42,013 nt of DNA from an uncultured bacterium (GTDB taxonomy: Bacteria; Latescibacterota; UBA2968): NCBI GenBank assembly GCA_964471275.1, contig CAYYGZ010000001.1, forward strand, positions 17,118 through 59,130, read 5' to 3'. Each line of letters starts with the position of its first letter. The stretch's first letter is position 1. A program made the translations under genes and the position numbers. Positions 26,536 to 32,342 of this stretch are shown piece by piece. The notes under the pieces are model-generated. The model saw nothing but the letters and a program-made list of their open reading frames with translations, had not been told where the DNA came from and made no database searches.

Positions 26536-29001
26536 ATGGCTTCAGATGGACCCAAACCAGAAGAACCGATTGAGCAGGAAGCCCTCGCAAAACGGTCTTT
26601 TCCGCCCAATCTACCGCTGCTGACATCCTCGGAAGTCGTCATCTATCCCTACATGGCGGCACCTCTGATCATCGAGGATGAGGAGGCGATTCAGACGGTA
26701 GAGGCAGCGCTCAAGACCGGCCACAAGGTGGCTGCCCTGTTTGGGCGGATACCGACCGACACGAAAGAGGAGGCGCCAGTTTCGGTGTCGTCACTCACAG
26801 AGGATGATCTGCACCCCGTTGGATCGGCGATCCAGCTTGTCAGGTCACAACGCACACCTGATGGCCGTTTGCAGCTGCTGGTTCACGGTGTATCCCGTGT
26901 GGGTATCCAGAAGGTGGTGCGCGAGAGTACGCATCCGGAGGTCATTGTTCGTGACCTTGAGGACCTTGTCGAGAGCTCAACTCGATTCGAGGCACTCGAA
27001 CAGAATGTGCTCAGCCATTTCCGCCGTGCGGTCGAGCTTGCTCCCAACGTTCCCAGTGAAATGGCAGAAGCGCTTTCGGCATTGCCCGAGCCGGGGCAGC
27101 GAGTCGACTTTGTGGGTACCCAACTCAACCTGGATTTCGAGGAGCGGCAGGAAATCCTGGGGGAGTTGAACGTCCGCCGTCGGTTCGAGCTGGTTAATGA
27201 GTTTCTCAACCGGGAGGTAGAGATACTCGAACTGCGGCAGAAGATTCAGTCTGAAGCGGCAGGGACACTCCAGGACGAGCAGCGCGAGTATATTCTGAGA
27301 CAGCAACTCAAGGCGATTCAGGACGAGCTGGGTGATGGCGGCGGCTCACAGGAAATCGATGAGCTCAGGGCAAAGGTCGCCGAAGCCGGGCTGTCTGAAG
27401 AGGCCAGAGTGGAAGCCGAGCGCGAGCTTGGTCGTATGGAGACAACTCCCCAGGCTTCACCCGAGTATGGTGTGTCGAGGACATATCTCGACTGGATGGT
27501 GCATCTGCCCTGGGCTCGCACGAGTAAGGATCGCCTCGACGTCCGGGCTGCCCAGAAGAAGCTGGACAAGGATCACTTCGGGTTGGACAAACCAAAGGAT
27601 CGGATTCTCGAGTATCTATCTGTTCGACAGTTGAAGGATGACATGCGAGGACCGATTCTATGCCTAGTCGGTCCCCCCGGTGTCGGGAAGACCTCCTTGG
27701 GTCGATCGATCGCCGAGTCTATGGGACGTGAGTTCATTCGCATGTCACTTGGTGGGATGCGAGACGAATCCGAGATCCGGGGGCATCGACGTACCTATGT
27801 CGGGGCACTTCCCGGTCGCATCATACAGGGCCTGCGCCGAGCAGGAACGAGCAATCCGGTGTTCATGCTCGACGAGATTGATAAACTTGGGTTTGACTTC
27901 CGAGGGGATCCTTCCTCGGCATTGCTCGAGGTGCTGGATCCGGAGCAGAATAGCACATTCACGGATCACTATCTGGATGTCGCCTTCGACCTGTCCAAGG
28001 TGATGTTTGTCGCCACCGCCAACTCCCTGCACACGATCCCATCCGCTCTTCTCGATCGGATGGAGGTTCTGGAACTGTCGGGCTACACGGAAGTGGAGAA
28101 GCTGGAGATTGCTCGAAGATATCTGGTACCGAAGCAGCTCGCAGAACATGGTCTGAATACGAAGAAGCTCTTTATCGACAAGGGAACGCTACGCTCCGTG
28201 ATTGGGGGATACACCAGGGAAGCGGGGCTTAGGAACTTGGAGCGAGAGATCGGAACGATTTCTCGCAAGGCCGCGCGGAAGTTTGCCGAAGGGCGGGTGC
28301 GTCGGATCCGGGTGAAGGAATCAGACCTGCCAGGCTTTCTGGGGCCGGTTCGGTATCGGTACGAAACGGTGGAGGAGTCCAACGAGGTTGGCGTTGTGGC
28401 CGGGCTGGCTTGGACGCCTGTGGGTGGGGATGTGCTTTTTGTGGAAGCCACGAAGATGCCGGGCAAGGGTCGTCTCAAGCTGACGGGACAGGTCGGGGAT
28501 GTCATGAAGGAATCGGTCGAAGCCGCGATGACCTATGTTCGATCGAAGTGGTCCGAGCTTGGTCTGGAGCAGTCTTTCGCCGATGATCAGGATGTCCACA
28601 TTCACGTGCCTGCAGGGGCGATTCCCAAAGACGGCCCATCTGCAGGCGTCACGATGGCGACGGTGCTGACCTCCGTGTTCACTGATCGTCCGGTGCGGAA
28701 GGAGGTCGCGATGACAGGTGAGGTGACGTTGCGTGGTAAGGTTCTGCCGATTGGTGGCGTGAGAGACAAGATCCTCGGCGCGCACCGGGCGGGGATCGAA
28801 ACCGTAATCCTGCCGAAAGACAACCAGAAGGATGTGGAGGATATTCCAGAGAGTGTAAGGAAGAACATCAAACTGGTTTTTGTCGATCACGTCGATCAGG
28901 TGATCGACAAGGCATTGATCAAACCTCGGAGACTCTCACGGGCCGCACGCGCAGGGAGTGCCAAGTCATCTGTCACAGCGACTGCCTCCTCCGTGAACTG
29001 A
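26536..29001 (+). CDS. lon: ATP-dependent Lon protease
   Basis: LON N-domain, Walker A GPPGVGKT, GHRRTYVGALPG, LDEIDK, catalytic PKDGPSAG, TGEVTLRGKVLPIGG; RBS AGGAG. Confidence 0.97.
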   Translation: MASDGPKPEEPIEQEALAKRSFPPNLPLLTSSEVVIYPYMAAPLIIEDEEAIQTVEAALKTGHKVAALFGRIPTDTKEEAPVSVSSLTEDDLHPVGSAIQLVRSQRTPDGRLQLLVHGVSRVGIQKVVRESTHPEVIVRDLEDLVESSTRFEALEQNVLSHFRRAVELAPNVPSEMAEALSALPEPGQRVDFVGTQLNLDFEERQEILGELNVRRRFELVNEFLNREVEILELRQKIQSEAAGTLQDEQREYILRQQLKAIQDELGDGGGSQEIDELRAKVAEAGLSEEARVEAERELGRMETTPQASPEYGVSRTYLDWMVHLPWARTSKDRLDVRAAQKKLDKDHFGLDKPKDRILEYLSVRQLKDDMRGPILCLVGPPGVGKTSLGRSIAESMGREFIRMSLGGMRDESEIRGHRRTYVGALPGRIIQGLRRAGTSNPVFMLDEIDKLGFDFRGDPSSALLEVLDPEQNSTFTDHYLDVAFDLSKVMFVATANSLHTIPSALLDRMEVLELSGYTEVEKLEIARRYLVPKQLAEHGLNTKKLFIDKGTLRSVIGGYTREAGLRNLEREIGTISRKAARKFAEGRVRRIRVKESDLPGFLGPVRYRYETVEESNEVGVVAGLAWTPVGGDVLFVEATKMPGKGRLKLTGQVGDVMKESVEAAMTYVRSKWSELGLEQSFADDQDVHIHVPAGAIPKDGPSAGVTMATVLTSVFTDRPVRKEVAMTGEVTLRGKVLPIGGVRDKILGAHRAGIETVILPKDNQKDVEDIPESVRKNIKLVFVDHVDQVIDKALIKPRRLSRAARAGSAKSSVTATASSVN

Positions 29002-29016
29002 TAGCGAGATGTGATT

Positions 29017-29059
29017 CACAAGAGGCCGCCGATGCAATTATGCGTCGGCGGCCTTTGTG
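29017..29059. terminator. Probable bidirectional terminator between lon and the selenoprotein gene
   Basis: AGGCCGCCGATGCA-atta-TGCGTCGGCGGCCT stem followed by TTGTG; lies between convergent genes. Confidence 0.75.
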
Positions 29060-29065
29060 TGTCTG

Positions 29066-29302
29066 CTAGTTGACTTTCTTCTTCAGGTGCGGCTCGATCT
29101 CTGCGTACTCGGGGAAGCGCTTTTCCTGGAGCTTCGAGTAAACGAGATCCCCGTCGAGGGTCACCTCAAAGCGGCCCCCACCCGATGGGATCAGCGTGAA
29201 TGCTTCAATGTCCTGCTTGAATGCTTTCAGAATTTGGTCCGTCAAACTGACGGCCTGGTCTTCGTAGCCTCACTGTGCGCAGTATTCGATTTCGAGCTTC
29301 AT
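29066..29302 (-). CDS. Rdx family (SelW/SelT/SelH-like) selenoprotein with CxxU motif, UGA read as Sec
   Basis: Minus strand after RBS GGAAGGAGG: MKLEIEYCAQ[TGA 29272-29270]GYEDQAVSLTDQILKAFKQDIEAFTLIPSGGGRFEVTLDGDLVYSKLQEKRFPEYAEIEPHLKKKVN*. Shows the IEYCxxU.Y, LIPS.GG.FEV and YSK...RFP Rdx signature. Confidence 0.92.
29236..29255 (-). promoter_or_regulatory. Bacterial SECIS-like hairpin downstream of the Sec UGA
   Basis: mRNA sense GGCCGUCAGUUUGACGGACC: CCGUCA/UGACGG stem with a small G-containing loop, starting about 14 nt after the UGA. Confidence 0.7.
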
Positions 29303-29631
29303 GCGTATCCTCCTTCCTGCTGGTGTGATGTGGCGCGTCTGTACAATTGCCTGCTCTTATTCGGTAAAGAAGCGGCGATCTGCTCAACGGTCAATGGGGT
29401 ATCCAGTTCTTTCGCTGCATTCAGCCCGTTGAGCCAGAGTTCAGCGTGTTTCTCACCTAAAAGCTCCCGGTCAACCGTTTGTATAAGATCCTCCACAGCT
29501 TGCTCGGTGTCGCCCCCCCGGAGGCGAGTCGTGCCAGCAGGCCAGGTGAATCCTTGCTGTTTCCCATGCGTTGTCCGGAAGCGGAATATGCGCTCGGAGA
29601 TCGAACGCGGCAAGCCGGTGTCGGTATCCAC
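29299..29631 (-). CDS. Hypothetical protein translationally coupled to the selenoprotein
   Basis: 110-aa ORF with GTG start; its TGA overlaps the selenoprotein ATG (ATGA); no recognised motif; start uncertain. Confidence 0.45.
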   Translation of the reverse strand: MDTDTGLPRSISERIFRFRTTHGKQQGFTWPAGTTRLRGGDTEQAVEDLIQTVDRELLGEKHAELWLNGLNAAKELDTPLTVEQIAASLPNKSRQLYRRATSHQQEGGYA

Positions 29632-29648
29632 ATAGAGACCGGCTCTAC

Positions 29649-29677
29649 TTGACGGGGGAATGTCCTCCCGTTAGTAT
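29649..29677 (+). promoter_or_regulatory. Putative sigma-70 promoter for M32 carboxypeptidase
   Basis: TTGACG-17nt-TAGTAT about 50 nt upstream of ATG 29727. Confidence 0.5.
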
Positions 29678-29726
29678 CGTGTTCGGTATTTCATTGCTAC
29701 TGGAAATCATACAAGAGAGTTCAGGA

Positions 29727-31232
29727 ATGGCAAATAACGACTCCTACACCAAACTGCACAATCATATGAAGGAAACGTCTCTTCTGGGTTCGTGCGGAAG
29801 CGTACTCGGTTGGGACGAGCGGACCTACATGCCGCGAGGTGGAAGCAAGCATCGTGGTGATCAGTTGGCCCTCCTAGCAGGCTTGATTCACGATCGCGTG
29901 ACAGACAAGCGTGTCGGACAACTCCTGGATGAGGCAGAGGGGAAGACCGGTGACCTGCTGACTCCGGAATCTGTTAACCTCCGGCACTGGCGACGCGGGT
30001 ATGACCGGGCGACGAAGCTGCCCAAGTCGCTTGTCGAGGAGATCGCGCGTGTGACGACGATGGGACAGCAGGTCTGGGGAGATGCGCGGGAGAAGGACGA
30101 CTATGCAGCCTTCAAACCGACACTCGCCGAAATTATCCGCCTGAAGAAAGAAGAAGCTCGTGCTCTGAGCAATGGCGGAGGGCTCTACGATGCTCTGCTG
30201 GTGGACTACGAGCCCGGCGAGACGACCCACAATCTGAAGCAAGTCTTCAAGGCTCTTCGGGACGATCTGATTCCTCTGGTCGAGGCTATTGCTTCGGCTC
30301 CCCGAAGACCCGACCTTTCGATCCTGCACCGAGACTACTCTGTAGATCGTCAGGAAACATTCGGAAAGATGGCCGCCGAGGCGATCGGTTTCGATTTTGC
30401 CGGGGGACGCCTGGATGTGACAACACATCCCTTCTGCAGCGGGATGGGGCCAGGAGACACACGGATCACGACTCGTTACGACCAAAACGAACTCAATCAA
30501 GCGTTTTTCGGGATTCTGCACGAAGCCGGACACGGTCTGTATGAGCAAGGACTCGATCCGGATCACTGGGGAACCCCGATGGGTGAGTCGGTGTCGCTGG
30601 GGATCCACGAGTCTCAATCACGCACGTGGGAAAACTTCGTCGGAAGGAGCCGGGGTTTCTGGCGTCACTTCTATCCAAAACTCCAGGAAGTTTTCCCTGA
30701 GGTGCTTTCAGATGTGTCGGAGGATGCTTTCGTGTTCGCTGTGAATGATGTGCGGCCTTCGATGATTCGTGTAGAAGCCGACGAGATTACCTATAACCTC
30801 CACATTCTGCTTCGTTTCGAGATGGAAATCGCGATGATCGAGGAGGATCTCTCGGTCGATGATGTTCCCTCACTCTGGAATCAGAAATTCGAACACTTCT
30901 TCGGTTTCGCGCTGGAGAACGATACCGATGGGTGCCTCCAGGATATCCATTGGAGCGGCGGGGGCGTCGGGTATTTCCCGACCTATACGTTGGGGAATCT
31001 GTATGGTGCACAATTCTGCGATACCGCCACCGACGAGTTGGGCGATCTGGATGCCCAATTTGCCGCGGGTGACTTCGGGCCGCTCAAATCGTGGTGCACG
31101 GAGAAGATCTATCGCCAGGGCATGCGCTACCTGCCCAACGAGTTGGTAAAGGAAGTGACTGGTAAGCCCTTGAGTCACGAGCCGCTGGTACGGCATCTGA
31201 GGCTCAAGTACTCTGAGCTCTACGGGCTCTGA
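29727..31232 (+). CDS. Carboxypeptidase M32 (Taq-like)
   Basis: LGWDERTYMP, HPF, D.RITTRY, HEAGH (HExxH), HESQS, IRVEADE, GCLQDIHW, GYFPTYTLG; start ATG 29727 preferred. Confidence 0.95.
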   Translation: MANNDSYTKLHNHMKETSLLGSCGSVLGWDERTYMPRGGSKHRGDQLALLAGLIHDRVTDKRVGQLLDEAEGKTGDLLTPESVNLRHWRRGYDRATKLPKSLVEEIARVTTMGQQVWGDAREKDDYAAFKPTLAEIIRLKKEEARALSNGGGLYDALLVDYEPGETTHNLKQVFKALRDDLIPLVEAIASAPRRPDLSILHRDYSVDRQETFGKMAAEAIGFDFAGGRLDVTTHPFCSGMGPGDTRITTRYDQNELNQAFFGILHEAGHGLYEQGLDPDHWGTPMGESVSLGIHESQSRTWENFVGRSRGFWRHFYPKLQEVFPEVLSDVSEDAFVFAVNDVRPSMIRVEADEITYNLHILLRFEMEIAMIEEDLSVDDVPSLWNQKFEHFFGFALENDTDGCLQDIHWSGGGVGYFPTYTLGNLYGAQFCDTATDELGDLDAQFAAGDFGPLKSWCTEKIYRQGMRYLPNELVKEVTGKPLSHEPLVRHLRLKYSELYGL

Positions 31233-31403: not shown

Positions 31404-32342
31404 GTGGACGTGATACTCGATGTCGACCCTGGGGTAGACGATGCACTGGCGATTCTGTTGGCTCTCTCGTCCAGAGAGCTGGACGTCCGGGCGCTCACGG
31501 TTGTGAGTGGTAACGTGCCCCTTGCCTCCGGTGCCGAAAACGCATTACGGATTCTGGCCTTTGCGAATCGATCCGGCATACCGGTCTACTCGGGTGCTGG
31601 CGCCCCTCTGGAACGGCCACCCGTATTCGCTAAGGAGATTCACGGCGAATCAGGGCTGGGAAATGCTGAGCTGGGTCCGTCGGATTGCAATGCTCACCCA
31701 GATGCGGTGGGATACCTTTGCGAGTCACTCGAATCCTGTCCTGGTGAGATCTCGATCTTTGCGGTGGGGCCGCTTACGAACCTTGCTCTGGCAGAGAGAA
31801 GGATCCCCGGAACGCTGGCCAGGGCCCGCGAGATCGTTGTTATGGGGGGGGCTGTGTCAGCATCCGGAAACGCGTCACCTGTGGCAGAATTCAACTTCTT
31901 CGCCGATCCGGACGCTGCACGCGAGGTGATACGGTCGGCGGCGAATGTTACAGTCATTCCTCTCGATGTGACACGTGAGGTGGGCATCAGTGAAGGTGAG
32001 ATTGAATCCGACATACGGCCCGCGAAGCGCCCCAATTGTGTCTTCTTCGAGAAGGTGACGGAAGTTGTCGTCCAGTATGGTAAGTTAAACGGCGGGTATG
32101 CGGGTCTGCATCTACACGACCCGACCGCTGTTGCTTACGGGCTGCAGCCAGACCTGTTCAGTGTTGAGGGAATTTTGGTGGATGTCGAGGTCGCGGGTCA
32201 TCTGACCAGCGGGCAACTGGTGACGGATCGGCGTGTGGGTGTGCGCGCAGGCAAACAAAAAGGGACACGGACTCGTGTCGCGATGGGGGTTGACGCGGGT
32301 GCTGTTCTGGAGCTGTTTCGAGAACGTGTGCTTCGTGCTTAG
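31404..32342 (+). CDS. Inosine/uridine-preferring nucleoside hydrolase
   Basis: DVDPGVDDALA, IHGESGLG, GPLTNLA, MGG, AEFNFFADP, HDP. Confidence 0.93.
   Translation: MDVILDVDPGVDDALAILLALSSRELDVRALTVVSGNVPLASGAENALRILAFANRSGIPVYSGAGAPLERPPVFAKEIHGESGLGNAELGPSDCNAHPDAVGYLCESLESCPGEISIFAVGPLTNLALAERRIPGTLARAREIVVMGGAVSASGNASPVAEFNFFADPDAAREVIRSAANVTVIPLDVTREVGISEGEIESDIRPAKRPNCVFFEKVTEVVVQYGKLNGGYAGLHLHDPTAVAYGLQPDLFSVEGILVDVEVAGHLTSGQLVTDRRVGVRAGKQKGTRTRVAMGVDAGAVLELFRERVLRA

Follow-up and report, generated by a model that had tools for sequence, protein, structure and literature searches.

The window analysed here, a stretch of 42,013 nucleotides of genomic DNA from an uncultured bacterium, carries on its minus strand a short Rdx/SelW-like gene (29066..29302) with 78 codons, including a UGA at codon 11, and a TAG stop (29068-29066). 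A Shine-Dalgarno sequence (GGAAGGAGG; 29309..29317, minus strand) lies 6 nt 5' of the ATG start codon (29302-29300); these signals and the stop were read directly from the DNA. Translation with TGA as U gave the frame MKLEIEYCAQ, TGA and then 67 sense codons (GYEDQAVSLTDQILKAFKQDIEAFTLIPSGGGRFEVTLDGDLVYSKLQEKRFPEYAEIEPHLKKKVN), which carry the motifs LIPSGGGRFEV, YSK and RFP. The redox motif of the read-through product is C8-A-Q-U11, with its first residue encoded by TGC (29279..29281, minus strand) and its last position by the in-frame UGA (29270..29272, minus strand). The original prediction had described a strong ribosome binding site, the ATG at 29302 with MKLEIEYCAQ, a TGA at the second redox residue and 67 further codons with the three family motifs, and all of them were found on the minus strand where it had placed them. 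AGGAGG-type sites comparable to that of the window precede the start codon in 30 orthologs.

The gene lies between a convergent gene for Lon protease (26536-29001, plus strand) and a divergent gene for an M32 carboxypeptidase (29571-31232, plus strand), beyond which an inosine-uridine nucleoside hydrolase is encoded (31404-32342, plus strand). A GC-rich hairpin, not assigned to a strand, separates the convergent Rdx and lon genes (29017..29059). Its folding energy is -33.5 kcal/mol (z -7.8), and none of 200 shuffled sequences was equally stable. A canonical T-run or U-tract is absent from the hairpin on either strand, which is why a consensus terminator scan of positions 28900-29700 did not list it. 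We regard it as a probable shared, bidirectional terminator for Rdx and lon; the terminator that had been predicted behind the gene corresponds to the TAG stop followed by this strong hairpin. The consensus scan of the same positions revealed no sigma-70-like promoter 5' of the Rdx gene; the null result of the promoter and terminator scan is uninformative for an uncultured lineage, whose promoter types may differ. ARAGORN detected no tRNA in the whole window, and the tRNA-Sec of the genome is located on another contig.

Family assignment was based on HMM searches with the read-through product, in which U was replaced by C. The product matched PF10262 (Rdx) with 80.2 bits (E 1.3e-22; cut-off 22.6) over model positions 1-70 of 74 and residues 2-71, an E value that places the match far above chance, and TIGR02174 (CXXU_selWTH) with 67.4 bits (cut-off 34.2) over positions 1-68 of 74. 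The proposed identity as an Rdx/SelW-like protein was thus borne out. The best NCBIfam match was NF041051 (SelTWH_Campy), the equivalog model of the Campylobacter-type SelT/SelW/SelH proteins, with a score of 83.8 bits that covers model positions 2-68 (of 70); as its curated threshold is 88 bits, the product falls outside the equivalog and is assigned at the subfamily level (TIGR02174) only. A six-frame search of the genome recovered the same locus at 72 bits.

A sequence search of the PDB gave seven matches, comprising six bacterial Rdx-family structures (E 1.3e-11 to 1e-05), part of them deposited under the name SelW-related protein, and human C17orf37. In the printed alignments the UGA stands opposite the second Cys of the CxxC motif of 2fa8 and 2p0g, and neither C8 nor position 11 varies among the 51 aligned sequences. 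An AlphaFold2 model built with these 51 sequences (mean pLDDT 97.2) displayed a strand at residues 2-8, a helix at 14-31, strands at 34-40, 45-49 and 52-56 and a helix at 66-77. The predicted fold is thioredoxin-like with the order beta1-alpha1-beta2-beta3-beta4-alpha2, and the CxxU motif is placed between beta1 and alpha1, with strand 2-8 on one side of it and helix 14-31 on the other. The top six Foldseek matches in the PDB were 2obk, 2fa8 (Agrobacterium Atu0228), 2p0g (Vibrio cholerae), 2oka, 3dex and 2ojl (TMq 0.88-0.91, rmsd 1.1-1.4 A, 74-77 columns). The window protein shares its predicted fold and the place of the redox motif with all six; it differs from 2fa8 and 2p0g in having CxxU instead of CxxC, and the solved bacterial SelW-related chains are, with 103-108 aa as deposited, about 25 residues longer. 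Lower ranks were taken by mouse SelW (2npb; TMq 0.73), MIEN1 (2ljk; 0.71) and thioredoxins (about 0.6). Mouse SelW and MIEN1 have the common Rdx superfamily fold with CxxU or CxxC between beta1 and alpha1, but only 21-29% identity to the window protein over the structural alignment. Eukaryotic SelW depends on a 3'-UTR SECIS with SBP2 and eEFSec, in contrast to a hairpin within the reading frame that SelB recognises. By family and fold the window gene is SelW-like, which does not imply that it is an ortholog sharing the partners of SelW.

We then compared the UGA codon across related genomes. A six-frame search with the product, covering the window's own genome and 40 relatives from two families of one order, revealed a match in 40 of the 41 genomes, and each best match contained one TGA. 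Thirty ortholog loci, the window's own included, were fetched and gave a gap-free alignment with 61-90% identity, in which U occupies the same column in every sequence. In a sample of 168 genomes of the phylum an Rdx match was found in 126; every match at E 1e-17 or better contains a TGA, and the only stop-free matches were one fragment and four distant paralogs with 29-32% identity. A search of named public genomes returned 32 loci, among them 30 true relatives, all with CxxU and TGA (30/30). Besides Latescibacterota, these relatives represent at least eight other phyla, and their labels include Gemmatimonadota, Acidimicrobiia and other Actinomycetes, Anaerolineales, Armatimonadota, Limnocylindrales, Planctomycetota/Phycisphaerales, Neomarinimicrobiota and SAR324. 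The two other loci (L083 and L084, Bacteroidetes and Flavobacteriaceae records) were dropped as spurious: a single peptide pattern accounts for their match, which is limited to residues 19-75, and an N-terminus with CxxU or CxxC is missing from both.

Contigs assembled from RNA libraries matched the gene with 0 differences in four runs from two studies (X1 and X4 from one sample, X2 and X6 from the second study). All four contigs cross positions 29270-29272 and carry the same TGA, which removes an assembly error as explanation. The X2 contig spans 29061-29321, approximately from the ribosome binding site to the stop and thus the whole gene, and the X1 and X4 contigs reach 29395, which would fit a transcript that is short and monocistronic. 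The 3' end of lon and most of the M32 gene had no such contigs, from which we drew no conclusion. The contigs are no proof of transcription, because DNA can occur in such libraries, and they bear on the sequence and its presence, not on Sec insertion. The runs are labelled hydrothermal vent and marine, labels that we did not take as a habitat.

A lone in-frame stop is a common artefact where a short gene lies in a fragmented MAG (here 369 contigs), and Cys forms of the Rdx family exist, as the CxxC structures 2fa8 and 2p0g illustrate. The TGA might be suspected to have arisen by nonsense mutation of a CxxC gene, or to reflect faulty sequencing or assembly, which would make the locus a pseudogene or artefact. 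However, the identical column of TGA codons in 30/30 orthologs and 30/30 relatives, the purifying selection on both sides of the TGA, the agreement of the RNA-library contigs and the complete Sec machinery of the genome (see below) all speak against it. The original prediction had named a genome without Sec machinery and close homologs with TGC or TGT throughout as the findings that would contradict it, and the alignment of homologs gave the opposite. We consider this explanation effectively refuted and its probability negligible.

Among the named records, five of the six closest are labelled Candidatus Latescibacterota or Latescibacteria. The closest named relative (L053), whose product is 88-90% identical, bears the submitter label 'Gemmatimonadetes bacterium', probably a mislabel by the submitter. 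A second CxxU Rdx paralog, with 55-58% identity in the alignment of 51 sequences, was detected at three loci (L058:3001-3369, L060:3001-3339 and L061:3001-3339), and second hits also appeared in six-frame searches of family f2 genomes. The paralog occurs in genomes labelled Latescibacterota and in one labelled Gemmatimonadota, and it is extended at the C-terminus by 35-45 residues, in which an S-C-C motif is conserved and the tail is basic.

Under table 11, the sole ORF listed in this frame is one of 59 aa that begins with a TTG (29066..29245). Exactly this truncated product is found in public protein collections, where it is encoded on five contigs (NCBI and ENA), has no name and belongs to a cluster of three members. 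No full-length counterpart carrying C at position 11 was present in the public protein collection in a look-up that is unable to reveal a U-bearing record. The statement of the original prediction that the gene had been missed by the ORF caller therefore needs refining: the full gene was indeed not called, but its frame was, in an N-terminally truncated form without CxxU, since callers list only the 59-aa TTG ORF. The listing and the public records would suit a product that truly starts at the TTG (codon 20, 29245), with the ten codons upstream forming an untranslated leader. Such a product, however, would be without beta1 and without any part of the CxxU/CxxC motif, of which Cys8 and residue 11 are the same in 51/51 sequences, and the Pfam match spans residues 2-71. 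The strong ribosome binding site precedes the ATG at 29302 and not the TTG, and the TTG is replaced by ATG or CTG in other orthologs, although only because residue 20 is a Leu or Met inside helix alpha1. Moreover, codons 5, 7 and 8 vary only synonymously among the 30 orthologs (ATC/ATT 16/14, TAC/TAT 13/17 and TGC/TGT 21/9), which argues that the ten-codon leader is translated in frame. We therefore give a start at the TTG hardly any credence. With the start at ATG 29302, public gene calls comprise only a fragment of 59 residues that lacks the active site, and their annotation needs correction; the same truncation probably affects orthologs across the remaining phylum sample.

Downstream of the UGA we identified a candidate bacterial SECIS hairpin within the coding region, based on folding and on pairing in the orthologs (GGCCGUCA-GUU-UGACGGaCC; 29236..29255, minus strand, 22 nt past the UGA). 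Its core is a 6-bp stem, in which 29253-29248 pair with 29244-29239, closed by an apical loop GUU (29247-29245). Folding of the single sequence gave a z-score of only -1.34, with 22 of 200 shuffles equally stable, so thermodynamics alone lend the hairpin no support. The orthologs were more informative. The core CCGUC/GACGG is invariant and in identical register in 30/30 orthologs, and the apical loop begins with G in all of them (GUU, GUA, GUC or GGGAU). In 24 distinct ortholog rows, all 144 cells of the 6-bp stem can pair, against 12-47% in a control in which the partner strand was slid by 1-3 columns. The two variable stem pairs changed to wobble pairs only (one UA-to-UG and eight AU-to-GU changes), and no pair was changed on both sides in the 24 distinct rows. 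As the stem hardly varies, a shuffle control was uninformative (500/500 shuffles reached the observed value). Third-position entropy is zero in only six of 74 codon columns, namely the UGA, codon 6 and codons 17, 18, 20 and 21, and the latter four form the stem arms. Val18 is encoded by GTC in 30/30 orthologs and Thr21 by ACG in 29/30, whereas 4-8 codons occur in the columns of other Val and Thr residues. In view of the lack of double changes, the RNA structure is supported by conservation and the freezing of synonymous sites and not by covariation; part of the conservation occurs at the protein level, because the stem overlaps the conserved residues V-S/G-L/M-T-D. Judged from the alignment, the synonymous sites appear to give the SECIS candidate stronger support than the pairing and covariation test. 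A scan of the whole window at the Rfam gathering thresholds revealed no family match, and Rfam may hold no fitting model of a bacterial SECIS.

The genome of the window (4.63 Mb, 369 contigs, 91.85% complete) encodes the machinery for selenocysteine insertion. The selA gene (562.9 bits) and a full-length selB (358 bits) are adjacent on contig C121 and score above the curated cut-offs. About 380 nt downstream of selB lies a tRNA-Sec, which was detected with 65.7 bits by Rfam and as tRNA-SeC with the anticodon tca (UCA) by ARAGORN. The selD gene was also found above its cut-off (357.3 bits) and contains a single in-frame TGA. Use of selenocysteine by this organism had been predicted from the window only, and with selA, selB, selD and tRNA-Sec(UCA) all the genes expected for it are present.

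UGA reassignment occurs in some uncultured bacterial lineages. UGA11 might accordingly be read as Trp, Cys or Gly, either after such a lineage-wide change of the code or by near-cognate suppression. TGA is, however, the commonest stop in this genome, closing 618 of the 1340 open frames that have 400 or more codons, and both flanking genes, lon and M32, end in TGA, so UGA is not reassigned here. The UGA of the Rdx gene also coincides exactly with the redox Cys position and is followed by the conserved SECIS-type hairpin. Finally, the gene tracks selA across the phylum. A search for selA in the same 168 genomes gave 131 matches above the cut-off, and co-occurrence was tallied by hand: 123 genomes have both selA and Rdx, 34 have neither and 11 are discordant. 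The tally carries no statistic, because related genomes are not independent. We regard a reading of UGA11 as any other amino acid than selenocysteine as very improbable.

The discordant cases comprise three genomes with Rdx and no selA (G020, G082 and G094, all MAGs of 430-820 contigs and 80-91% completeness) and eight with selA and no Rdx (G009, G048, G051, G055, G119, G123, G151 and G162). Six families showed no match to either query. Searches with the window product revealed no Cys-form Rdx ortholog in selA-negative genomes. Two of the selA-positive genomes without a match to this query are nearly complete (G009, 98% complete, and G048, 99% complete, with 2 contigs each), which may mean that some Sec users within this phylum have lost the SelW-like gene.

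Taken together, we consider it highly probable that 29302..29066 on the minus strand functions as a monocistronic gene and encodes a SelW-like selenoprotein of 78 residues, whose UGA11 is decoded via SelB and the SECIS hairpin. According to this model, the ribosome would start at ATG 29302, and SelB-GTP with Sec-tRNA(Sec, UCA) would be recruited at the UGA of codon 11 by the hairpin at 29255-29236, with selenocysteine being inserted in place of termination. Cys8 and Sec11 would then most likely cycle between the selenol/thiol and the selenenylsulfide form, and the product would most likely act as a small thiol-dependent oxidoreductase.

SelW-like proteins with a CxxU motif have been catalogued since 2004-05, and the Sargasso Sea and GOS selenoproteome papers (PMC1088965, PMC2398784, PMC1794560) also place the family in the cultured bacteria Geobacter sulfurreducens and Desulfotalea psychrophila. 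Symbiobacterium thermophilum is a further cultured host. No selenoprotein family is more abundant in marine metagenomes (PMC2398784, PMC1088965), and in the GOS data, where it also ranks first, 427 Sec stand against 56 Cys forms (PMC2398784). The bacterial SECIS is described as a stem-loop immediately 3' of the UGA with a small, G-containing apical loop (PMC1088965). The family, its CxxU motif, the type of SECIS and the preference for Sec over Cys have all been published (PMC1088965, PMC1794560, PMC2398784, PMC13188914). The window gene agrees with the catalogued bacterial members in family (by HMM), CxxU motif and length (about 75-80 residues), in a SECIS hairpin with G in a small apical loop after the UGA, and in the dominance of the Sec form with few or no Cys orthologs in Sec users. 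Nothing categorical differs; the host lineage is apparently Latescibacterota. We regard the product of the gene as a real SelW-like/Rdx selenoprotein and a further member of a well-catalogued family, and as no new kind of system. A full-text search found no literature on selenoproteins of Latescibacterota, although the supplementary tables of selenoproteome papers may list such genomes. The deep and clean set of orthologs could serve partner prediction for bacterial SelW-like proteins.

The co-occurrence data raise the question of whether the SelW-like protein is a core, Sec-obligate selenoprotein of the phylum. The gene is present in 123 of the 131 selA-positive genomes, this query did not reveal it in any of the 34 genomes in which a selA match was missing as well, and no conversion to Cys was found. 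If the protein were Sec-obligate, Cys could not perform its chemistry, and the gene might help to keep the Sec trait alive in the lineage. We consider a core and obligate role improbable. Eight of the selA-positive genomes gave no match to this query, including two with 98-99% completeness, so the gene is not indispensable for Sec users.

Synteny was counted over the 30 ortholog loci (L022-L051, the window's own included) with flanks of 1.5 kb. The M32 gene adjoins Rdx in 17 and Lon in nine of these loci, and neither adjoins it in the 25 loci L058-L082, which represent a Latescibacterota paralog and other phyla. We rejected synteny as a functional clue: the adjacency of M32 and Lon is to be read as inherited gene order and not as an operon, since both neighbours are oriented divergently or convergently to Rdx and the arrangement is mostly absent from the largest genus. 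On the improbable reading as a core selenoprotein, the partly conserved place, back-to-back with M32 and tail-to-tail with Lon, could point to redox-linked protein quality control.

Several further candidate selenoprotein genes were observed in the genome of the window. The selD gene (G000:C135:3664-4587, minus strand, corresponding to L011) is itself a selenoprotein gene, with U in the context ...KTCGUAAKISP (TGA at L011 2395-2397), a position that we take to be that of the catalytic Cys17 of E. coli SelD. As an internal control for the SECIS candidate, its UGA was examined as well: 17 nt downstream lies a 7-bp hairpin whose apical loop reads GGUC, an architecture as in the Rdx hairpin. A peroxiredoxin/BCP-like gene (G000:C89:10661-11029, plus strand; PF00578, 116.7 bits) contains an in-frame TGA in ...FYPRASTGGUTAQ, at the T-x-x-U position of Prx selenoproteins. 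Together with the SelW-like protein and with candidate FdhA-like and thioredoxin-like members, SelD and this Prx candidate would mark the lineage, apparently Latescibacterota, as one that uses selenium consistently and has a selenoproteome of several members, which bears on trace-element ecology. The FdhA-like gene encodes a molybdopterin oxidoreductase (G000:C100:5163-5897, minus strand; below the TIGR01553 cut-off) with a TGA in ...NCSRAUHAPTV and a hairpin that starts 11 nt past the UGA, and it is a candidate for a Sec-containing formate dehydrogenase. The thioredoxin-like ORF (G000:C68:3500-3652, minus strand) has an apparent signal peptide, a TGA immediately 5' of its CxxC motif (...FHGDUCGSCKK) and a hairpin after the UGA; it may encode a secreted selenoprotein with an unusual U-C-x-x-C arrangement.
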